Shown here: positions 6,404 through 30,160 of the stretch, one piece after another
Numbering within the stretch: the stretch's first letter is position 1
Layout of the letters: every line of letters begins with the position of its first letter
Source: a virus
Lineage: Duplodnaviria > Caudoviricetes
Direction: 5' to 3' (one strand)
Virus record (IMG/VR): IMGVR_UViG_3300010412_000016
Span: 1-58,689 of that record
DNA: 58,689 nt
Translations under genes and position numbers: made by a program
Notes under the pieces: model-generated
What the model saw: the letters and a program-made list of their open reading frames with translations, nothing else
What the model was told of the DNA's origin: nothing
Databases searched by the model: none

Positions 6404-6940
6404 ATGAGAGTTTATATTGGTCCGTTTCGTGATGATAATGAATCACACAACGAATGGCGTCCTACCGAACCATTTGAACGAGATATTCGAATTAATATTG
6501 ATGATTACGATGTGTGGAACATGGATACAACACTTGCGATGATTATTCATCCCATGTTAATTAAACTAAAAGAAATTAAAAACGGTCATCCGTGTATACA
6601 AAAGATGCATAAGGATGCTCCATGCGTAATTAATCAAGACTGTAATTGTAATGAGGAATGGAATACGATTCTTGACAAAATGATTTGGTCTTTCAAACAA
6701 CAATTTGATACGTCTGAAGAGGATCAGTATTATAGTGGTGATCTTGTTTGGGAGGACGAATTAATTCCTACCGATGGAGCCGGTAACGTTGTACCCAAAG
6801 AAGAAGCTACGTTTTTTAGGATGGTTAAAAGCCCAAAAGATACGTTTAAAATTGACACCGATGGACTTACAAAACACTACGAACGAATTCAAGAAGGACT
6901 TGATTTATTCGCTAAATATTATCAAAGCTTATGGGACTAA
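6404..6940 (+). CDS. conserved phage hypothetical protein
   Basis: AAAGGAG RBS; D.YDVWNMD.TLA.II.PML...GL.LF.KYY..LWD pattern familiar from T4-like phages. Confidence 0.7.
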   Translation: MRVYIGPFRDDNESHNEWRPTEPFERDIRINIDDYDVWNMDTTLAMIIHPMLIKLKEIKNGHPCIQKMHKDAPCVINQDCNCNEEWNTILDKMIWSFKQQFDTSEEDQYYSGDLVWEDELIPTDGAGNVVPKEEATFFRMVKSPKDTFKIDTDGLTKHYERIQEGLDLFAKYYQSLWD

Positions 6941-6946
6941 TTATAT

Positions 6947-7019
6947 GGCAGTGGGGAGGCAGGTAAGTCTCAAAACGACTCATAACCGTTTTTAGGCCGT
7001 TCGATTCGGCACACTGCTA
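6947..7019 (+). tRNA. tRNA-Met(CAT), elongator or Ile2 type
   Basis: GGCAGTG/CACTGCT; AACGA-CTCATAA-CCGTT; TTCGATT T-loop. Confidence 0.8.
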
Positions 7020-7040
7020 TTTTTTTAATGGAGAAACACC

Positions 7041-7328
7041 ATGTTTTTATTCAGAGATTATGTTAGAGAAGAAGTTGCTCGTATGGTAATGGAAGTCACA
7101 GATAGAGAAATAACAACTTCTGTAGCACGGGAGACTGCCAAAACTCTTGGATTAGATTTTTCTAAATTGGAGTTTTCATTTGAAGATTTTGCAGAAGGAA
7201 TGCGAGTTGAAATGGAGCACAAAGACATAACAGGTGGTGATCCAATTAAAACTGCTAAAATAGCATTGGCTCATCTTCGAGAACGACCAGATTATTACAC
7301 GCAATTAAAAAAACACGTAGAAAATTAA
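7041..7328 (+). CDS. DUF5661-like protein
   Basis: GMRVEMEH...AKIALAHLRERPDYY..L motif. Confidence 0.7.
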   Translation: MFLFRDYVREEVARMVMEVTDREITTSVARETAKTLGLDFSKLEFSFEDFAEGMRVEMEHKDITGGDPIKTAKIALAHLRERPDYYTQLKKHVEN

Positions 7329-7329
7329 T

Positions 7330-7605
7330 ATGCCACCATTTTATAAACAAGTTTTGTCGTTTGTTGAAGAGATGTGGATTGCAGTTAAATTTCGCCTATC
7401 CAATAAATATATTAAAGTGGATTCGGCAATACAACAACAACGATGGAATGTCTGTCAATCATGTGTATTTTTTCAACGAGGTCGTTGTTCTAAATGCGGA
7501 TGTTTCATGAAACTAAAAACGCAATTAGCAAGTGCATCGTGTCCCGAAAACAAATGGTCGGCAACTATTATCACCACAGACGAATGTGAAATATGTCCAC
7601 CCTAG
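7330..7605 (+). CDS. Cys-rich protein (DUF6171-like)
   Basis: R..VC.SC...RC.KCGCF...K......CP..KW. Confidence 0.7.
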   Translation: MPPFYKQVLSFVEEMWIAVKFRLSNKYIKVDSAIQQQRWNVCQSCVFFQRGRCSKCGCFMKLKTQLASASCPENKWSATIITTDECEICPP

Positions 7606-7706
7606 TTTTTTACTTAGAGAGCCAGATCATAATCTTGAACCGTGGAATCATAATTCGGATTGGATCGCATTTGCAAAAGAACCAATTAAAGAATAATACG
7701 TGGTAT

Positions 7707-7791
7707 GCATCCGTGCATGGAACCGGTAGACAGGACAGACTCAAAATCTGTTGCTCAACTGAGCGTGGGGGTTCGAGTCCCTCCGGATGCA
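7707..7791 (+). tRNA. tRNA-Leu(CAA)
   Basis: GCATCCG/CGGATGC; ACAGA-CTCAAAA-TCTGT; long variable arm. Confidence 0.93.
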
Positions 7792-7816
7792 TTTTACATT
7801 TATGAAAGGTAATGTT

Positions 7817-8377
7817 ATGCTTGTAGATGATATATACAACCAACGATGTGTAGAACCGGGTGACATATACGAATTACTTCCATTATTATACAAATACGCA
7901 TCAAAATGTTCACATGTAACGGAATTTGGTGTAAGGTCATTGGTATCTACATATGCACTTTTGGCAGCAAGACCGCATACTGTTATTTCGTATGATCATA
8001 TTCATCCAGACGCAACCGGAGGTAATTTACAACAAGCCATCGATGCCGCGACCGAAGCTGGTGTTACGTTTATTTTTCGGCAAGAAGATACATTACGTAT
8101 CACTATTGAACCAACAGATATGTTATTTATTGATACACTACACACGTATGATCAATTAAAACAAGAATTAGCACTTCATGCAGATAAAGTACGAAAATAT
8201 TTAGTATTTCATGACACTTCTATAGATTCGTGGGGAATGGGTGGAGAATTGAATAGTTTCGGATTGTGGTTCGCCATTAAAGAATTTCTCAGAGACAATC
8301 CAAATTGGGATGTACTTGAAAAAGTTGAGTATTGTGCTGGATTGACTGTTCTAGTTAAAGATGAATTTACTAAATAA
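7817..8377 (+). CDS. class I SAM-dependent methyltransferase (Methyltransf_24-like)
   Basis: VTEFGVR, DMLFIDTLHTY, LVFHDT motifs. Confidence 0.8.
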   Translation: MLVDDIYNQRCVEPGDIYELLPLLYKYASKCSHVTEFGVRSLVSTYALLAARPHTVISYDHIHPDATGGNLQQAIDAATEAGVTFIFRQEDTLRITIEPTDMLFIDTLHTYDQLKQELALHADKVRKYLVFHDTSIDSWGMGGELNSFGLWFAIKEFLRDNPNWDVLEKVEYCAGLTVLVKDEFTK

Positions 8378-8379
8378 AT

Positions 8380-8579
8380 TGAAACTGAACTATCGCACTA
8401 CGGTGAGGAAGCTCGGAACACTCCCGAACCCCGTGGGAGAGAATTCCCTCGATAATACCACGAGATACCGCAAGGGGGAGTGCAACGCAAACAAGACGAG
8501 ATAAGGTTCATTCGTTGAGTCTGGGTCGCGGCCATAAGACAGATGATAGTTTAAAACAGAATTCCGGCTACTAGTTTCA
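8380..8579 (+). ncRNA. rnpB: RNase P RNA, minimal (reduced specificity domain)
   Basis: P1 TGAAACTG/TAGTTTCA; P2 AACTATC/GATAGTT; GAGGAAGCTCGGAAC (8405-8419) pairs with AACAGAATTCCGGCTA (8555-8570) to form P4 with its bulged U; CACTCCC/GGGAGTG. Confidence 0.85.
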
Positions 8580-8609
8580 CTTAGTTTCACTATCATAGAA
8601 AGGAAAGTT

Positions 8610-9035
8610 ATGATATTATATACTGGGGGCACATTTGATTTATTTCATGCTGGTCATGCAAATTTTCTCTATCATTGTAAAAAAATTGTTGGAGATAGCG
8701 GTAAGGTTATAGTAGCACTTAATACCAACGATTTCGTGCTACGAACCAAAGAAGTACAAATTATTCCCTACGAAGAACGAAAAAGGGTACTAGAGGCATG
8801 TAAATATGTTGATCAAGTAATATGTAATGAAACGGACGAGGATTCAAAACCCACCATTCTAAAAGTAATGCCAAATTTTATCGCCATCGGAACTGATTGG
8901 GCTGTCCGTGATTATTACACACAGATGCAATTCACCCAAAAATGGTTGGATTCACTTAATATAACTTTACTTTATATACCATATTATACTGGAATATCCA
9001 GTACACAAATTAGAGATCTTTTATTAGGAAAATAG
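8610..9035 (+). CDS. cytidylyltransferase (TagD/RfaE-C family)
   Basis: GGTFDLFHAGH (HxGH), YVD.V, GISSTQIR. Confidence 0.9.
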   Translation: MILYTGGTFDLFHAGHANFLYHCKKIVGDSGKVIVALNTNDFVLRTKEVQIIPYEERKRVLEACKYVDQVICNETDEDSKPTILKVMPNFIAIGTDWAVRDYYTQMQFTQKWLDSLNITLLYIPYYTGISSTQIRDLLLGK

Positions 9036-9036
9036 T

Positions 9037-9708
9037 ATGTCACTATCAAACATCTCGTTTGCTATTGCCACAGTAGAAACTTATAAAGAAACAACCATTC
9101 CTGTCGTAATTAATAGTTTACGATTAAATGATATTTCATCAGAGCAAATTCATGTGTTTGTCAACAGTAGCACTAAAAATTCCGACGAAATTGTTGATGG
9201 GATCAATTATCACTATAATGTGGGATTAAGTTATTTTGAATGGATTAACCCAAAACTTATTATTGAACGTAACTTAAAATCAGATTGGTGGTTTTTATTA
9301 CACGATACCGTAGAGTTCGGACTTCGGACGCAAACCGTATTAAAAACTTTCGCCGCAATATCGGACACCAACTGTGGTATTATTAAATTAACCCCGACAC
9401 ATAGTAACAGTATTGGAATGTTACGTCAGCGGATTTTTGATACACATCAAAATTTCTTTTTTGACAAACTTCGATCATTAGATACTATCCATGACGTATT
9501 AGAACGTAAACGATGGTGTATTAAAAATGAAAATTCATTTCTACATTTAGAACCATTTTCATTTTTTCAATCGGATAATGCAATACAAGTGCCAAACCAA
9601 TCAATATATGATACAAAACGAATACGAGAGTATTTTCACGGTATTGACATGATTAAATGGAAAAAGAATAATAGCGGGTACGCTGCAGTTCGTGATGTAC
9701 AACTATGA
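9037..9708 (+). CDS. putative GT-A fold glycosyltransferase-like protein
   Basis: WWFLLHDT (DxD-like position); operon with glycosyltransferases. Confidence 0.5.
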   Translation: MSLSNISFAIATVETYKETTIPVVINSLRLNDISSEQIHVFVNSSTKNSDEIVDGINYHYNVGLSYFEWINPKLIIERNLKSDWWFLLHDTVEFGLRTQTVLKTFAAISDTNCGIIKLTPTHSNSIGMLRQRIFDTHQNFFFDKLRSLDTIHDVLERKRWCIKNENSFLHLEPFSFFQSDNAIQVPNQSIYDTKRIREYFHGIDMIKWKKNNSGYAAVRDVQL

Positions 9709-10400
9709 TTAGTGTAATTATTCCTACTATATGGTTACATCCAGATGCGGTGCATCACATTATCAATCAGTTAATATTAGAATCTTCTATAGGTGAAATT
9801 ATACTCATTAACAATAACAGAAACTATGAGAATTCATCCATTCCAAATCATCCAAAATTGGTATTGGTGGTTCCAGAAAAAAACATTGGTTGTAATCCAG
9901 CGTGGAATATCGGGGCGAAGATGGCATCCTTTGACAAATTGTTTTTTCTGAGTGATGATTTTGCTTTTGATTTTTCTATATGTAAATATATTGAACCCCA
10001 TATAACAGAAACCCGAGGACTAATACTATCTAACACAAATAGTTCGTCTAATGACATGCCAATACGACTTGTTCCCGCAAATTGGCCGGAAAATAGAACG
10101 TTGGGTTGGGCAAGTGGATTTTTTGTACATAAAAAAGTTTATAATCCTATTCCAGAACAACTAAAAGTTTACTGTGGAGATAATTGGTTATTGGATACCA
10201 TTCCATATCCACATTATATGATTCACGGAGTTTCTTTTAATAAGTACTTTTCATACTCGGTGAATTTCGTTCGTAATTTAGGCCCACACCACCCATTGTA
10301 TATTGATTTCTCCGGCGATCAGATTGAATATGAAAATATTAAAAAACAAATGATTGTACCAGATAGAATTAAAGCCAACGAAGTGATATCACTAATATGA
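9705..10400 (+). CDS. glycosyltransferase family 2
   Basis: ISVIIPT, NIGCNPAWNIG, FLSDD, YCGDNW. Confidence 0.85.
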   Translation: MISVIIPTIWLHPDAVHHIINQLILESSIGEIILINNNRNYENSSIPNHPKLVLVVPEKNIGCNPAWNIGAKMASFDKLFFLSDDFAFDFSICKYIEPHITETRGLILSNTNSSSNDMPIRLVPANWPENRTLGWASGFFVHKKVYNPIPEQLKVYCGDNWLLDTIPYPHYMIHGVSFNKYFSYSVNFVRNLGPHHPLYIDFSGDQIEYENIKKQMIVPDRIKANEVISLI

Positions 10401-11155
10401 TAGATATCGTTATTAATTACTGCTCCATAGATTTTCGATTCATTGAAACTAATATTCGTGAATGCTTAAAATTTTCGAATAATATTATTATTCCCGTATG
10501 CGACCATTTGTTCAATGGTGAACCAGAAAATGATGATATTTTACAACAAACATATCAATTACAAACTTTATCACCATCAATCAAATTTTTACAATACACA
10601 TGGAATGAAAATGAAACTGCAAAATACCACCACAACCTTTCTAGATGGATTGGATATGAAAAAAGTACAACTCCATATATTTTGTTTCTGGATGCCGATG
10701 AAATTATGGATGGTGATCTAACACGACAGTACTTTGATAGTAAATCATATGATGGGATGGATGTAATAGCATTCAAATGCTATTGGTATTTTAGAGAACC
10801 AACATATAGAGCGAAACGTACAGAAATGGCAGCAACACTTCGAAGTGAGCGTTCGTGTATTCATGATTTAATTTTTCACCCTCAGGAACGATGGGCATAT
10901 AGAGGTTATAGTGGTTTACGGGTTCGTGAAGAAGAAACGTACGATAATAAAATTTTATGTCATCATTATTCGTGGGTACGAACTGAAAAGGAAATGCTAA
11001 AAAAAGTTGCTACTTGGGCACACTCAACCGATAAAAATTGGACAAGTTTAGTAAAAGAAGAATTTGGTAGGGAATTCAATGGAACTGATTTTGTACATGG
11101 ATATCAATATGATATACTACCTTCATTAGAATCCCCATTGACAAAAGTATCATAA
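10397..11155 (+). CDS. GT2-like glycosyltransferase
   Basis: YILFLDADE DxD motif; HHYSWVR. Confidence 0.7.
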   Translation: MIDIVINYCSIDFRFIETNIRECLKFSNNIIIPVCDHLFNGEPENDDILQQTYQLQTLSPSIKFLQYTWNENETAKYHHNLSRWIGYEKSTTPYILFLDADEIMDGDLTRQYFDSKSYDGMDVIAFKCYWYFREPTYRAKRTEMAATLRSERSCIHDLIFHPQERWAYRGYSGLRVREEETYDNKILCHHYSWVRTEKEMLKKVATWAHSTDKNWTSLVKEEFGREFNGTDFVHGYQYDILPSLESPLTKVS

Positions 11156-12180: not shown

Positions 12181-12441
12181 GTGGGTAACAATAATCGTCG
12201 TTTAACTTCTTATCAACTTATAAAAGAAATTCGAGAGGACTTGAATTTTACAAAAATCAAATTAGATTTATTCATACGTTATGGAATAGGATCATCAAAT
12301 GATGAATTATTGAATGATGATAAAACGTATGATTGGTTTAATTATCTCCATTGGAGAAAAGAACGAATGAACAGAGAGACTGGAAAAAGCGAGGTAATTG
12401 CATGGGATTTCCAAAAAAGAGAAGAGGACGACGAAAAATAG
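12181..12441 (+). CDS. hypothetical protein
   Basis: AAGGAG RBS, GTG start. Confidence 0.6.
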   Translation: MGNNNRRLTSYQLIKEIREDLNFTKIKLDLFIRYGIGSSNDELLNDDKTYDWFNYLHWRKERMNRETGKSEVIAWDFQKREEDDEK

Positions 12442-12485
12442 GTTCTAAAAAACGAAAGAATCGTAAAAAGAACAAAAAGCGTTAG
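12402..12485 (+). CDS. very basic 27-aa peptide MGFPKKRRGRRKIGSKKRKNRKKNKKR
   Basis: GAGGT RBS 6 nt before ATG; 17 of 27 residues are K/R. Confidence 0.55.
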   Translation: MGFPKKRRGRRKIGSKKRKNRKKNKKR

Positions 12486-12506: not shown

Positions 12507-13796
<1,290 letters not shown>

Positions 13797-18713: not shown

Positions 18714-19868
18714 ATGAAGTTACATTTATTTGGATTACCACATACAATTACTACAAACGAATACAGTCATTGTGCATATACCGGAAAAATTAAACGGTTT
18801 GCTCCAATGTTACGTTCTGTTGGATATGAAGTGATTCATTATGGTGTGGCTGGAGCAGATTCCGGGGCCAATACTCAAGTGGATTTACTTTCGTATACAG
18901 AGTGGATGGATATTCTTCATAGAATGGCCAAGAGTTTATATCCCGACAGAGATGAGAGTCAATTACTTTCAAAGAAAAACTTTTTTCAAGATTTCGTTCG
19001 CCCCAACAGTGAGTTGTATACTGAATTTAATAAACGATTGGAATATCATCTAATACAGCATTATGAAGCAGGGGATATTATTTGTTTACCTTTTGGACAA
19101 GCACACGATGATGCATTGGTACGACATTTTCAGGGTGCTATAAAAGTAGAAACTGGTATTGGATATGAACATTCATATCAACCATATCGTATTTTTGAAA
19201 GTTATGCATGGTATCACTATACCGCTGGCAAACAGAACCAGTTTTATGGAAGTGATTATTGGTTTGTTATTCCAAATTACTATGATTTGAGTGAGTGGGA
19301 ATTCAATCAAACTCCCAAACGATATGTAGCCTTTATGGGACGTTTGATTGATACTAAGGGATTGAGTATTTTTGTAGAAATGGCTCGTCGAAGACCCGAC
19401 TTAAAATTTATTATGTGTGGTCAGGGTGATCCGACTCCGTGGTTGGTTCTTCCGAACATTGAATATCAAGAACCAAAACACGGACTAGAACGTTCAGAGT
19501 TTCTTGGTAACGCATTGGCATTTTTTGCAGGAAGTCGTTATATTGAACCGTTTGGTGGAGTCGCCGTTGAAGCACAACTGTGTGGTACCCCAGTACTGGG
19601 TTCTGGATTTGCATGTTTCACCGAAACAATTGAACATGGAATGACAGGATATAATTGTCACACGCTTGGTGATTTTTTAGTAGGACTGGAGGCCATTGAA
19701 AAAGGCACCGTAATAAATCGTAATTATGTTCGTTATAGAGCATCACAATTATATGACATGTATAAAGTGGCACATCAATATGATGCGGCATTTAGACAAA
19801 TTTTGGATGTAAGTCAAGACGGTTGGTTTAAACCTGTGTCATATACTACATATCGTTATAGAGTATAA
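18714..19868 (+). CDS. GT-B (GT4-like) glycosyltransferase
   Basis: AFMGRL..TKG, EPFGGVAVEAQLCGTPV, ETIEHG.TG. Confidence 0.9.
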   Translation: MKLHLFGLPHTITTNEYSHCAYTGKIKRFAPMLRSVGYEVIHYGVAGADSGANTQVDLLSYTEWMDILHRMAKSLYPDRDESQLLSKKNFFQDFVRPNSELYTEFNKRLEYHLIQHYEAGDIICLPFGQAHDDALVRHFQGAIKVETGIGYEHSYQPYRIFESYAWYHYTAGKQNQFYGSDYWFVIPNYYDLSEWEFNQTPKRYVAFMGRLIDTKGLSIFVEMARRRPDLKFIMCGQGDPTPWLVLPNIEYQEPKHGLERSEFLGNALAFFAGSRYIEPFGGVAVEAQLCGTPVLGSGFACFTETIEHGMTGYNCHTLGDFLVGLEAIEKGTVINRNYVRYRASQLYDMYKVAHQYDAAFRQILDVSQDGWFKPVSYTTYRYRV

Positions 19869-20298: not shown

Positions 20299-20640
20299 GG
20301 GTCCGTTTGGTATCGACAGACGTTTAAAAATAAAAAGTGGCGTGTCGGGAATAATTCAATCCCGTAAAATGAATTAAAATACATAAAAGCAAACGAAACA
20401 TTTGCCCTTGCTGCTTAAGTCAGCAACCTCTTTTTAGTTTTTCTCACGGATTAAAATAGAGGCCGATAGTGAGGCTGAATACGAGAAGTTCACGCATCGT
20501 AACTCAGAGTAAGTGAATAGTTAGTCGAAGAGTTGAGCGGTTTTCTCAAAGACAACGATGTATAATAAAACCGCTATACACACGTAGATACTTTTATGAG
20601 TAAGATGGACTGGACAAGGGTTCGAATCCCTTCGGATCCA
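20299..20640 (+). ncRNA. ssrA: tmRNA, tag ANETFALAA
   Basis: Acceptor GGGTCCG/CGGATCC-A with G3-U70; TCGAC after the 5' stem; T arm AAGGG-TTCGAAT-CCCTT; tag frame GCA...GCT GCT TAA at 20389-20418. Confidence 0.95.
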
Positions 20641-20656
20641 TACTGGAGGAAATGAT

Positions 20657-21311: not shown

Positions 21312-22207
21312 AGGTAGGAAGTAACGGGCTGTTTGGAGTCCGTAATCATAATACGAGGTAACCCGTATAAAGGGGGATTGGCACCTCACCGCCCCGCCTG
21401 ACGTAAGTTGGGAGAATCCAAACAAGCCACATTCAGTTACCCGCGAGGGTAATGTATCGGATGAAACCGGTAATAGGCTGGAAGTGTGTGAAAGGGAAAG
21501 AACCTTAGCTTAAGTGCCACGATTCAGTTCGGCTGGCGTGGGAACACTTGCAAGGAAAGACTGACGGGTGGTGCCGGGATCCTTTCAAACCAACACACGA
21601 CAGAGTATGAACAAGTGGTAATCAATTAGTGCAAGCGGGGGACCGTGAGTGTTAATTGGTAGTATGAGTGGATCTGGTTTCCCAGCGGATTCCAAAGAGG
21701 AGCCAGAATCACAAAATACGAAGGAGTACCTTCACAGGGAAACTTAGCAGTGGAGTGTCGCATTTCGATGTTCAAAAGATATCGAAACGACTGGAGGCGC
21801 ACTTCACGGAGGTTAACAGCTAGGTAGCTTGAAACTACCACAAGAATTTGGATCTTGTACATTTCAAAAAAAGGAAAGACGCCTCCGGTGCTACGCGAAA
21901 AGGTTTCTTGAAGTAGCGTAACGCCAGACTTCTTCGGAAGAATCTGGCAGGGTTATTGTCCCCAAGACGATGATTCTTCAATCGGCATCCGCACATAACG
22001 GGGTAGCTCCCGTGAACGGCTCGCAAGGTCGGTGGTAGGATTAAGGTTGAGTAACGTAGCATGACAGTCTCACCGCAGAGACTTTAATAAACGCCGCTAT
22101 GATTCTTTACCTACATGAGTAGGTGGATACGAGAAGAACGGTGGGATGGGAATCCCATTGATAATGTCTCAAAAGGAGAATCACAAAGGCTGTAATCTCA
22201 AGCCTTC
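21312..22207 (+). ncRNA. large structured ncRNA, probably GOLLD RNA
   Basis: ~900 nt with no credible ORF and elevated GC; many helices (GGCTGTTTGGA/TCCAAACAAGCC, TTACCC-GCGA-GGGTAA, GCCAGA/TCTGGC with a TTCG loop, terminal AAGGCT-GTAATCTCA-AGCCTT); own promoter; directly followed by tRNAs. Confidence 0.7.
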
Positions 22208-22211
22208 TCTT

Positions 22212-22280
22212 GCGGCCTTAGTGTTAATGAGCACGGTTGGCTTCCAGCCGACAGGTCCGGTTCAAATCCGAGAGGTCGCT
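22212..22280 (+). tRNA. tRNA-Gly(TCC), degenerate copy
   Basis: GCGGCCT/AGGTCGC, U73; GTTGG-CTTCCAG-CCGAC; D-loop lacks GG; imperfect T stem. Confidence 0.7.
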
Positions 22281-22311
22281 CTTCGAGCTAAATAGTATAG
22301 TTATAATACAC

Positions 22312-22383
22312 GGCCCTATCGTCTACTGGCTAGGATGCGACCCTTTCAAGGTCGAGAAACGAGATCGATACTCGTTAGGGCTA
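22312..22383 (+). tRNA. tRNA-Glu(TTC)
   Basis: GGCCCTA/TAGGGCT; CGACC-CTTTCAA-GGTCG; T-loop ATCGATA (A54). Confidence 0.9.
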
Positions 22384-22389
22384 TTTCGA

Positions 22390-22461
22390 CGCGGGGTAGA
22401 GAAGTAGCAACTCGTCACGCTCATAATGTGAAGATCGTGGGTGCAAATCCCACCCCCGCCA
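22390..22461 (+). tRNA. initiator-like tRNA-fMet(CAT)
   Basis: CGCGGGG/CCCCGCC with C1:C72 mismatch; TCACG-CTCATAA-TGTGA; T-loop TGCAAAT. Confidence 0.85.
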
Positions 22462-24959: not shown

Positions 24960-25619
24960 TTGATTATGGTTACGGAAGAACAAATTAAAGAACAATATGA
25001 ACGGTTTATGAAGTTGATTCAGGAAGATTCTCGTAATGAGAATTTACTGAAAATGTATGAAGTTTTGGGAGAACGGCTTATAGAAGCTCCCGCTTCATCT
25101 CGCATTCACTTTCATAACGCATTTCCGGGCGGCTATCTCGATCACGTGCTGAGCGTATACGATGCCGCCCTTCGCGTTGCGAAACTGTTTAAGGAACTCG
25201 GCGGCGTGCTAAATTTTACCAAACAAGAATTAACAATGGCTGCACTTCATCACGATTTGGGTAAGTTGGGAGACTTAGACCAGCCATATTATTTGGATCA
25301 AGATTCCGATTGGCATCGTCGGCGCGGCGAAGTTTTTAAAATGAATGATGCCCTACAATTTATGCACGTTCCGGACAGAGCATTGTTTTTACTTCAGCAT
25401 TTTGATGTTAAATTAACTAGAGCAGAATGGTTATCTATAAAACTATCTGATGGTATGTATGATGATGGAAATAAGGCATATTTAAAGCATGTTCCATATC
25501 CATATTCAATGCACACCAATCTACCATACATCATTCACACCGCTGATTATTTGGCTTGTAGTGCGGAACGTGATCAGAGCAGAATTAATCTTGAGGATGA
25601 TTCTACAAGCGAGAGTTAA
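24960..25619 (+). CDS. HD-domain phosphohydrolase
   Basis: APAS...HNAFPGGYLDH, LHHDLGK, IHTAD. Confidence 0.85.
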   Translation: MIMVTEEQIKEQYERFMKLIQEDSRNENLLKMYEVLGERLIEAPASSRIHFHNAFPGGYLDHVLSVYDAALRVAKLFKELGGVLNFTKQELTMAALHHDLGKLGDLDQPYYLDQDSDWHRRRGEVFKMNDALQFMHVPDRALFLLQHFDVKLTRAEWLSIKLSDGMYDDGNKAYLKHVPYPYSMHTNLPYIIHTADYLACSAERDQSRINLEDDSTSES

Positions 25620-29044: not shown

Positions 29045-30160
29045 ATGAGTCGTATTATTAACGAAACTTTGACGTTTGATGACGTACAAATTTTACCGGA
29101 GTACAGTAGTATAAGAACACGAGACAGCGTATGCTTGAAAACTCGTTTTACTAAACAATATCAAATTGAAATTCCATATGTAGCATCGTGTATGCCAGAT
29201 GTATGTGAAGTTGACATGGCATGTGCTATGTGGCATGCCGGTGGAGTTGGTGTTATCCACCGATTCATGACCATTGACGATCAGTCAAGAATGGTTGAGA
29301 GCGTGTGGAAACATATTAAGGATGAACTGTCACGTTGGCCGAATAGAAAACAGGATAGACATTTTGATCCAATTAGTTTACGTAAAGACTATCCTGTTGT
29401 TGCCGCGGCAATTGGTGCTGTAGATGATTATTTTTCACGAGCAGTATCACTACTCATGTCGGGTGCAAATGTACTCATGTTGGATGTGGCACATGGGCAT
29501 CACGAAAATGTTAAAGTGGCAATGGGTGAATTAATCAAACTTAGAAATGAATATAGTTTTGATATCATTGCTGGTACAATTGCTACATCCCAAGCGGCGT
29601 TGGATTTGATTGATTGGGGTGCAGATGCATTGCGAGTTGGTGTCGGGGGCGGCTCTGCCTGCGAAACACGAATACGAACTGGTATTGGCGTTCCACAATT
29701 ACAATCTGTTATGGATGTGGCGGAAGCTGCCGATACATACGACATTCCAATAGTATCTGATGGTGGTATTCGTTATCCCGGTGATGTGGCGAAGGCAATT
29801 GTTGCTGGCGCAGAAACCGTTATGATGGGAAATTTATTTGCTGGATGTGACGAATCTCCGGGTATGGAATTAGTGACTGGAAAGTGGCCCGACATCAAAA
29901 AGCAACGTATTTATAAGGGTGCTGCTTCAGCCAGTCAAAAACTGGGATATAATGGAGCAGTTAGTTATGTAGAAGGTGCTACAAAGATTATTGACGCACG
30001 CGGTCCTGTTTCCGAAATGATCAAGAGCTTGGAAGAAGGACTTCGTTCGTCATTAAGTTATGTGGGTGCAGAAGATATAGAACAGTTTCAAAGTAAGGCG
30101 CGTTTTATTAGAATTACTAATGCAGGAATGATTGAAGCACACCCACATATGTTATATTAA
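29045..30160 (+). CDS. IMPDH/GMP reductase family enzyme (no CBS domains; GMPR-like flap)
   Basis: LTFDDV, DVAHGH, GVGGGSACETR, SDGGIR..GD, GLRSSLSYVG. Confidence 0.9.
   Translation: MSRIINETLTFDDVQILPEYSSIRTRDSVCLKTRFTKQYQIEIPYVASCMPDVCEVDMACAMWHAGGVGVIHRFMTIDDQSRMVESVWKHIKDELSRWPNRKQDRHFDPISLRKDYPVVAAAIGAVDDYFSRAVSLLMSGANVLMLDVAHGHHENVKVAMGELIKLRNEYSFDIIAGTIATSQAALDLIDWGADALRVGVGGGSACETRIRTGIGVPQLQSVMDVAEAADTYDIPIVSDGGIRYPGDVAKAIVAGAETVMMGNLFAGCDESPGMELVTGKWPDIKKQRIYKGAASASQKLGYNGAVSYVEGATKIIDARGPVSEMIKSLEEGLRSSLSYVGAEDIEQFQSKARFIRITNAGMIEAHPHMLY

Follow-up and report, generated by a model that had tools for sequence, protein, structure and literature searches.

Comparative evidence for a reduced, phage-borne homologue of bacterial type-A RNase P RNA

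In this study, we describe a small structured RNA encoded on the (+) strand of a phage sequence, IMG/VR virus record IMGVR_UViG_3300010412_000016 (58,689 bp; CheckV completeness approximately 29%), the whole of which is referred to here as the window. Comparative sequence evidence makes it very likely that this element, a mini ribonuclease P (RNase P) RNA of 200 nt at positions 8380-8579, is a phage-borne homologue of bacterial type-A RNase P RNA with a reduced specificity domain (S-domain). We identify it as such because all of its helices covary, including P4 and P6, because a covariance model made from phage copies cross-matches a genuine bacterial RNase P RNA, and because the order of its motifs matches that of RF00010, the Rfam type-A family. 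As predicted from the alignments, the RNA keeps the whole catalytic domain (C-domain), namely P1-P3, P4, the joints, P5, P6, the CAA of J5/15 and P15-L15-P16/17. It has lost P18, and of its S-domain P7 and one hairpin with a conserved internal loop remain. In a preliminary description of this DNA, made from its letters alone, a phage-encoded RNase P RNA had been placed here, reduced to about 200 nt and recognisable by P1, P2 and a P4 with a bulged U. Each of these features is present, and the covariation, the cross-match and the motif order bear out the identity that was proposed.

Two ribozymes are common to all domains of life, RNase P RNA being one of them, and we know of no published RNase P RNA of viral origin. 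No description of a phage- or virus-encoded RNase P RNA was found in the full-text literature that we searched, which held few subscription journals and no supplements, so that an earlier mention elsewhere is possible; similarly, none of the models in Rfam 15 matches the element. In its accessible part, a 2024 review of RNase P mentions phage-encoded tRNAs only (PMC11143913), and the occurrence of host RNase P RNA, and also of GOLLD RNA, within horizontally acquired tRNA clusters is treated in the available text of another study (PMC6582537).

Relatives, covariation and homology to type A

Pattern scans gathered 265 related loci in all, with the counts from two of the scans being lower bounds. 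A two-part pattern taken from the putative P4 strands (about 24 specified bases) retrieved 16 viral contigs. When three of the P4 pairs were left free, the relaxed pattern retrieved at least 118 metagenome stretches and, from one genome each of 185,579 prokaryote species, 2 contigs, both of which belong to metagenome-assembled genomes (MAGs), one of Flavobacteriales and one of Planctomycetia. The set obtained with this first type of pattern comprises 137 loci with 113 distinct cores of 149-171 nt, to which longer spacings added 18 viral contigs and shorter spacings 9. A pattern without any P4 bases, spanning J5/15 to L15 only, retrieved at least 120 viral contigs, giving 132 distinct complete hits, 73 of them outside the first pattern; the locator used on this set was simple and probably missed some copies with long insertions. 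The number of pattern matches is far above chance expectation. Many of the metagenome contigs with matches are short and unclassified, and the relatives include virus records with terminal repeats, one of 357 kb with a completeness rating of 100% and another of 142 kb. The family is restricted to phages.

These relatives allowed the structure to be examined by comparison. RNAalifold, given 14 sequences, recovered P3, P4 with its bulged U, P5, P15, P16 and P17, and 16 of the 27 pairs showed compensatory changes. An explicit structure was also written on the window row and counted on two alignments. In a MAFFT alignment of 111 distinct sequences, 86.9% of the cells pair compared with 62.8% after shuffling, and the covariation score is 0.584 compared with 0.174 for shuffled alignments (0 of 500 reach it) and 0.064-0.135 when the partners are slid. 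The second alignment was made with R1, a covariance model that was built from phage copies only and that does not have P4 in its structure. Its 101 rows come from 100 of those 111 loci, without the 11 at the end of the list, and it is biased by construction towards nested helices; here, 93.1% of the cells pair (64.6% after shuffling) and the covariation score is 0.723, against 0.182 for shuffled alignments and at most 0.119 with slid partners.

P4 and P6 were also considered individually. On the R1 alignment, 3 of the 8 P4 pairs covary. Among the P4 pairs that the pattern left free, pair 3 is CG in 55 sequences, UG in 27 and GC in 29; pair 6 is GC in 42, AU in 66, UA in 1 and CG in 1, with one mismatch; and the third such pair is GC in 104, AU in 4 and GU in 3. 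Among the hits of the P4-free pattern, P4 differs at almost all of its positions, yet all 8 pairs form in 108 of 126 copies, with U as the bulged base in 121 of 126. The flanking joints are similarly well kept in this set, J3/4 being exactly GAGGAA in 115 of 126 copies and J2/4 exactly ACAGAA in 109 of 126 and ACAAAA in 10 more. The P4 covariation among homologues that the preliminary description had looked to is found both in the phage-family alignment and in the P4-free-pattern set. For P6, an alignment-free approach was used: 88 of the 101 rows have an uninterrupted Watson-Crick match of 5 bp or more between the J5/7 and the P17 loop of the same RNA, whereas the figure is 9.6% with the loops of other members and 9.3% with shuffled loops. 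Covariation supports every helix, including P4 and P6.

R1 also provides a direct connection to a cellular RNase P RNA. In one of the two MAGs, the mini copy is accompanied by a normal RNase P RNA, located on a different contig (RF00010, 209.7 bits), and R1 matched this genuine RNA from end to end (60.4 bits, E 7e-16), with all other matches in 60.8 kb scoring below 10 bits. Over the whole 2-Mb MAG, R1 made two matches, one to the mini copy (155 bits) and one to the genuine RNA (37.2 bits, E 7e-8). R1 places the extra sequence of the genuine RNA in two parts, the P16-P18 region and the S-domain, which has 89 nt for 22 positions of the model, and the phage P7 aligns with the P7 of the genuine bacterial RNA. 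No S-domain sequence (conserved regions CR-II and CR-III) was aligned and P8-P14 were not found, in agreement with the preliminary description, which had seen neither CR-II nor CR-III.

Furthermore, the phage consensus and the RF00010 consensus share the same motif order and register: CGC, P3, GAGGAA, the P4 5' strand, P5, CAA, P15, an A-rich loop, P16/17, GGGU, the P15 3' strand, AGAUnAAUG, the P2 3' strand, ACAGAA, the P4 3' strand, A and the P1 3' strand. The Rfam consensus itself reads GAGGAAAGUCCGG at the P4 5' register, CAA-ggcc-AAAUAG at J5/15-P15, CGGGUa on the 3' side of L15, AGAugAAUG after P18 and immediately before the P2 3' strand, and ACAGAACCCGGCUUA at J2/4-P4 3'. The type-A characters found in the phage RNA are thus a P4 of 3 + 5 pairs with the bulged U and GAGGAA/ACAGAA flanks, the order P1-P2-P3 with a P2 of 6-7 bp, the CAA of J5/15, a P15 with a GGU loop, P16/P17 and the P6 pseudoknot. 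P3 is far shorter than in the Rfam consensus, and P18 is absent in the window, where 14 nt (8531-8544) without a hairpin take its place.

The window copy, its grade of reduction and its surroundings

The features of the window copy are as follows.

8380-8579 (+): complete mini RNase P RNA of 200 nt, bounded by the two strands of P1; R1 match 8365-8585, 157.1 bits
8380-8387 (+): P1 5' strand, pairing with 8572-8579; changes at both partners in 8 of 8 pairs among relatives; pairing in 84% of cells
8388-8394 (+): P2 5' strand, 7 bp with 8545-8551; covariation in 7 of 7 pairs; pairing in 85% and 99% of cells (two helix segments)
8396-8405 (+): mini P3, a 3-bp stem with a UACG tetraloop; 97% of cells pair; 2 of 3 pairs covary
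8405-8418 (+): J3/4 GAGGAA and the P4 5' strand AGC-U-CGGAA (8410-8418, bulged U8413); P4 pairs in 99.9% of cells
8419-8425 (+): P5 5' strand; family-wide pairing 8419-8423/8478-8482; 4 of 5 pairs covary; 90.7% of cells pair
8426-8430 (+): 5' strand of the P6 pseudoknot, GAACC, pairing with GGUUC 8505-8509 in the P17 loop
8432-8462 (+): S-domain remnant, with P7 (8432-8436/8458-8462), an internal loop (G8437 A8438/8451-8457) and a hairpin (8439-8441/8448-8450)
8468-8475 (+): small optional hairpin CC-GCAA-GG between the P7 3' and P5 3' strands, in a subset of relatives; read by eye from the alignment
8483-8485, 8486-8488 and 8489-8493 (+): J5/15 CAA, P15 5' strand and 5' side of L15 (AAACA)
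8494-8522 (+): P16 (8494-8497/8519-8522) enclosing the P17 region; 94.6% of cells pair; 4 of 4 pairs covary
8523-8530 (+): 3' side of L15, UGGGUC (GGU 8524-8526), and P15 3' strand (8528-8530)
8531-8551 (+): J15/2, in place of P18 and J18/2, and P2 3' strand; contains AGACAGAUG at 8537-8545
8552-8570 (+): J2/4 with ACAGAA (8556-8561), P4 3' strand UUCCGGCU (8562-8569) and A8570
8572-8590 (+): P1 3' strand and its tandem duplicate, TAGTTTCAC at 8572-8580 and 8582-8590

Several of these features vary within the family. The UACG hairpin of P3 is replaced in relatives by GNRA loops or longer stems, and P5 is longer in the window by 8424-8425/8476-8477. The two P5 strands, CACTCCC (8419-8425) and GGGAGTG (8476-8482), enclose 50 nt (8426-8475); short hairpins lie there as described earlier, over a span a little below the 55 nt or so first estimated. 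The tandem repeat of the P1 3' strand, which the preliminary description had also pointed out, is a quirk of the window copy, which alone among 129 distinct family 3' tails carries it.

Other positions hardly vary at all. In the S-domain remnant, the cells that pair amount to 94.3% for P7 and 96% for the hairpin, and the asymmetric internal loop has G8436, A8438, G8439 and A8457 in every one of the 101 rows and C8458 in all but one. This invariant loop (8436-8439, 8450-8458) may be a surviving contact with the substrate or a protein. Its strands, GGAG and CGUUUGYAC, were read by eye against motif rules; as a k-turn the sequence is a misfit, as a T-loop it is only a loose fit, and we could assign the loop to no named motif. 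In J5/15, the C is kept in 100, the first A in 98 and the second A in 101 of the 101 rows. P15 is short, with 3 bp, and pairs in 97.4% of cells with all three pairs covarying. The G, G and U of L15 are each kept in 100 of 101 rows, and these bases were absent from the patterns by which those rows were fetched. The P17 loop carries the P6 3' strand, and the pairing of P17 is irregular in the window itself. In and beside J15/2, A8537 and G8538 are conserved in 100 of the 101 rows, A8543 in 99, U8544 in 100 and G8545 in 95. Neither the CAA of J5/15 nor this AGA..AUG stretch was imposed by the search.

The window copy represents a middle grade in a series of reductions, because longer relatives have P18-like hairpins and shorter ones are without an S-domain. 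A few long relatives (loci L187/L198, L190, L194, L201 and L091) carry GAAA-capped hairpins at the position of P18, and some longer relatives have a larger remnant hairpin. At the other end, nine shorter relatives (cores of 113-120 nt, some on contigs of 121-380 kb) have no S-domain remnant and nothing after P5; in these shortest forms, the loop closing P5 carries the P6 strand. R1 recognizes all 21 of the long and short loci that were tested, the long ones at 92-147 bits and the short ones at 76-92 bits. In addition, locus L086 has a partial second copy at 8417-8540 (+) (54.1 bits, model positions 32-158), in tandem with and just upstream of its full copy at 8544-8746, which may be a remnant of a duplication.

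With respect to its surroundings, the mini RNase P RNA occupies a 232-nt gap between two open reading frames (ORFs), 7787-8377 upstream, with a weak methyltransferase match, and 8610-9035 downstream, which is cytidylyltransferase-like (71 bits). The listed start of the upstream ORF (7787-7792) overlaps the 3' end of a tRNA-Leu gene (7706-7792), and its true start is therefore probably further downstream. ARAGORN found 16 tRNA genes and a transfer-messenger RNA (tmRNA) in the window, and 13 of the tRNAs lie upstream of the mini RNase P RNA on its strand, within 8 kb. A scan of 6900-9200 for promoters and terminators gave counts at chance level, with no signal beyond chance around the window copy. 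No RNA data set was listed as containing 7600-9100, and the one metatranscriptome compared touched solely a tRNA-like stretch, 7719-7754 (<90% likeness, loose ends). A GOLLD RNA is also present; the tmRNA (121 bits; ARAGORN tag ANETFALAA) and the GOLLD RNA (171.9 bits) are at 20299-20643 and 21750-22461, respectively, with GOLLD directly 5' of three or four tRNA genes. Thus, three large structured RNAs, the mini RNase P RNA, the tmRNA and GOLLD, occur in one phage tRNA region.

Among the other genes of the window, which include those for baseplate, tail and virion proteins and so mark it as phage, are an adenylosuccinate synthetase (12537-13796, 440 bits), a protein of the IMPDH/GMP-reductase type (29045-30160, 336 bits) and a weak HD-domain match (24960-25619), which together constitute a purine-metabolism set. 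Cytidylyltransferase, glycosyltransferase-like and methyltransferase-like genes at 8610-11155 and 18714-19868, interspersed with the tRNA region, form a possible sugar-modification module.

tRNA linkage, proposed role and alternatives

The family is closely associated with tRNA genes. In the first-pattern set, tRNAs were found in 117 of the 137 loci, and 1231 of 1233 tRNAs were on the strand of the element. The closest tRNA is at a median distance of 11 nt and within 50 nt in 74 of these loci, and 76 loci have tRNAs on both sides. The P4-free-pattern set gave the same picture, with tRNAs in 87 of 102 loci and 1032 of 1033 of them on the strand of the element. This tRNA-array context points to tRNAs as the clients of the RNA, and the role that the preliminary description had suggested, the maturation of the phage's own tRNAs, fits such same-strand embedding. 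Two of the arrays with the element contain suppressor-type tRNAs according to ARAGORN (anticodons CUA and UUA; locus L090 571-644 (-) and locus L110 2002-2079 (-)), which hints at stop-codon recoding in some phages of the family.

The encoding of the 3'-CCA in these arrays is bimodal. For the 88 loci with at least 5 tRNAs, 44 encode CCA in at least 80% of them, 42 in at most 20%, and 2 fall between; in the window, 0 of 16 tRNAs encode it. This bimodality probably tracks the host lineage or a CCA-adding enzyme, and forms without an S-domain occur with both CCA-plus and CCA-minus tRNA sets.

In bacterial RNase P, the regions next to P2, P3 and P4 bind the protein subunit. No RnpA (PF00825) was found in six frames of the window at E<=1, which confirms the impression given in the preliminary description, nor was PF00825 found in six frames of 5 related virus records (among them the 357-kb record, 100% complete, and the 142-kb record, both with terminal repeats). 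A basic peptide near 12402 had been put forward as a cofactor; the ORF in question (12351-12485, 44 aa) overlaps ORF 12181-12441 in another frame and has no Pfam match at E<=1, and we have abandoned this candidate. As there is no phage RnpA, the RNA would have to use the host RnpA, act alone or use an unrecognised protein, and the first of these is favoured because the joints around P2, P3 and P4 are well kept.

We consider it likely that the mini RNase P RNA would be an active RNase P for the pre-tRNAs of the phage. With regard to its transcription and excision, RnpA binding, catalysis and substrate range, we infer the following course. The RNA would be transcribed together with the phage tRNA genes and trimmed out of the transcript by the enzymes that process tRNA ends, since the simplest reading of the arrays is co-transcription followed by release through processing of the flanking tRNAs. 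It would then bind host RnpA and act in trans, removing the 5' leaders of the many pre-tRNAs of the phage, with the phage tmRNA perhaps another substrate. Recognition would be by the acceptor stem, leader and 3' end instead of the tRNA elbow. With somewhat less assurance, we lean towards a broader proposal, in which the family would consist of natural ribozymes of approximately 150-250 nt, with little or no S-domain, that take over tRNA 5' maturation during infection, with host RnpA or protein-free, under a rule that ignores the elbow.

A number of observations speak against this interpretation, either as regards homology or as regards function. At the gathering threshold, the whole window matched no RNase P family of Rfam, and RF00010 over the record gave no match; the interval 8250-8750 (501 nt), searched at E<=10, gave no match to bacterial A or B, archaeal, type T or nuclear RNase P. 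The weak Rfam matches in this interval (small nucleolar RNAs, U6, BtsR1 and a CRISPR repeat; E 0.21-6.3) are due to chance. With Rfam's own models, the covariance-model search named in the preliminary description thus formally went against its proposal. We attribute this outcome to the missing S-domain and P18 and not to a lack of homology; the gathering score of RF00010 is 100 bits, which the window copy does not reach. The single-sequence fold is no more stable than its shuffles (z = 0.00), with neither strand better, and for this reason the case rests on comparative evidence and not on thermodynamics. A blastn search of INPHARED gave no match for the region. The genes on either side were used to fetch relatives as well, 42 loci for the downstream cytidylyltransferase and 4 for the upstream methyltransferase-like gene. 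In the three closest of these, a coding gene occupies the place of the RNA, screening the 46 loci for the motifs revealed nothing convincing, and R1 detected no copy in 5 partial viral records that have neighbouring gene families in common with the window. On Rfam, folding energy, INPHARED and synteny alone, the mini RNase P RNA would have been dismissed. As for function, the window copy does not adjoin a tRNA, the closest of which ends 588 nt upstream, and its flanks are protein genes. The S-domain normally binds the tRNA elbow, and this part is missing from the window RNA. In type-A enzymes, the GGU of L15 pairs with the 3'-CCA of the tRNA, and it is kept here in both CCA classes (as GGGU in 26 of the 35 loci that are CCA-minus and in 37 of the 40 that are CCA-plus). 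Finally, the use of host RnpA is an assumption, because no protein cofactor is encoded, and published C-domain-only constructs are less efficient, according to the available text of that work (PMC5839562).

These points have to be set beside the alternatives. An RNA that captured the host RNase P protein, either as a sponge or as a specificity switch, could shut down or redirect host tRNA maturation, with its own catalysis being minor. The lack of a phage-encoded RnpA would suit such an RNA, as would the strong conservation of the regions beside P2, P3 and P4, which bind the protein in bacterial enzymes, and the full RNase P RNA in the MAG with a mini copy, since competition between the two RNAs within a cell would be possible were that MAG the host. 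However, a decoy needs no active-site or substrate contacts, yet the bulged U (121 of 126), the CAA and the GGU (100 of 101) are near-invariant, and the close association with tRNA arrays, on their strand, speaks for tRNAs as clients and not for host shut-off, so that we regard this explanation as unlikely. We would give slightly less credence still to a non-catalytic derivative of RNase P RNA with a different role in the tRNA-array transcript, for instance scaffolding its folding or processing, capping it for protection or signalling to other RNases. The RNA indeed lacks the S-domain and P18, the shortest forms, with cores of 113-120 nt, are much smaller than any RNase P RNA of bacteria, and GOLLD, a large RNA without known function, is described from the same tRNA islands in the accessible part of that report (PMC6582537). 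However, the conservation sits on P4, P6, J5/15 and L15, which is what a ribozyme made of the C-domain only needs according to experiments (PMC5839562, available text) and what a scaffold would not predict.

That the element is not a phage gene at all, being either the reduced RNase P RNA of small-genome cells on misclassified contigs or a decaying pseudogene, is close to refuted. Two matches in MAGs (Flavobacteriales and Planctomycetia) and the many short, unclassified metagenome contigs would allow it, but the window has baseplate, tail and virion genes, the relatives include virus records with terminal repeats (357 kb, 100% complete, and 142 kb), and only 2 of the 185,579 species genomes match, one of these MAGs having a normal RNase P RNA on another contig. 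A pseudogene is ruled out by the pervasive compensatory changes. An active RNase P for phage pre-tRNAs is the explanation that we prefer.

Significance and comparison with known RNase P RNAs

A virus-encoded RNase P RNA would add a catalytic RNA to the translation parts carried by large phages. If the broader proposal is true, these would be the smallest bacterial-type RNase P RNAs known, evolution would have reached the minimal ribozyme of laboratory truncations more than once, and RNase P would take its place, beside phage tRNAs, tmRNA and GOLLD, in the contest between phage and host over translation. It also raises the questions of why host RNase P would be limiting or targeted in infection, and whether phage tRNAs need a different recognition rule. 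The graded series, from forms with P18 and a large remnant, through P7 with a hairpin, to forms with no S-domain, is a natural test of the roles of the C-domain alone, the S-domain and P18. In practical terms, hundreds of intergenic regions that are now blank in phage genomes would receive an annotation from a covariance model of the family, and compact RNase P ribozymes are of interest as tools. The series matches predictions from truncation experiments, as these are given in the available text (PMC5839562).

With the catalytic domain of the RF00010 type A, the phage RNA shares the order of the helices and the joints, as well as a 7-bp P2 and the 3-nt J5/15 linker. It differs in being approximately 200 nt long compared with the 367 positions of the Rfam model, in lacking P8-P14 (CR-II and CR-III) and, in most copies, P18, and in having a P3 that is a tetraloop hairpin. 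The archetype of bacterial type A is the M1 RNA of E. coli. The phage RNA is encoded by phages, in tRNA arrays, and not by cells. Organellar and Mycoplasma RNase P RNAs are also naturally reduced RNAs of bacterial type, with P1 and P4 retained. They are the sole RNase P RNA of the cell or organelle, whereas the phage RNA would be a second, mobile copy in a cell that presumably has an RNase P RNA of its own. Type B RNase P RNA is characterized by P5.1, P10.1 and P15.1; no match to RF00011 was found and the helices of the window RNA are the type-A set, so we have rejected a type B identity.

A parallel with type T, the form found in Thermoproteaceae (Rfam RNaseP-T), was drawn in the preliminary description, and it holds as far as the reduction of the S-domain is concerned. 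According to the accessible text on type T, that RNA is likewise natural, with the catalytic domain kept and most of the S-domain gone, and it too was missed by the Rfam models of the time on account of its reduced S-domain (PMC3579882). The parallel fails in the details: type T has a 3-bp P2, a 2-nt linker between P5 and P15, a P15 that is one pair shorter and an archaeal core (PMC3579882), and works with archaeal proteins, whereas the phage RNAs have a 6-7-bp P2, the 3-nt CAA linker and a bacterial core. With its 7-bp P2, its CAA linker and no Rfam match to any RNase P family, the window RNA is not of type T but a reduced bacterial type A, and the phage and type T forms represent independent reduction, not shared descent.

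Engineered ribozymes offer a further comparison. In the available text of the truncation study, a type-A C-domain without the S-domain is active with lower efficiency, a P6-like contact is needed, and P18, whose partner P8 lies in the S-domain, is dispensable (PMC5839562). The phage RNAs correspondingly keep a covarying P6 and drop P18, and their shortest forms (loci L202-L210) are in effect natural C-domains. However, the published constructs are truncations of the E. coli RNA (PMC5839562), whereas those of the phages occur naturally and are subject to selection, most of them keeping a P7-hairpin remnant with invariant loop bases.

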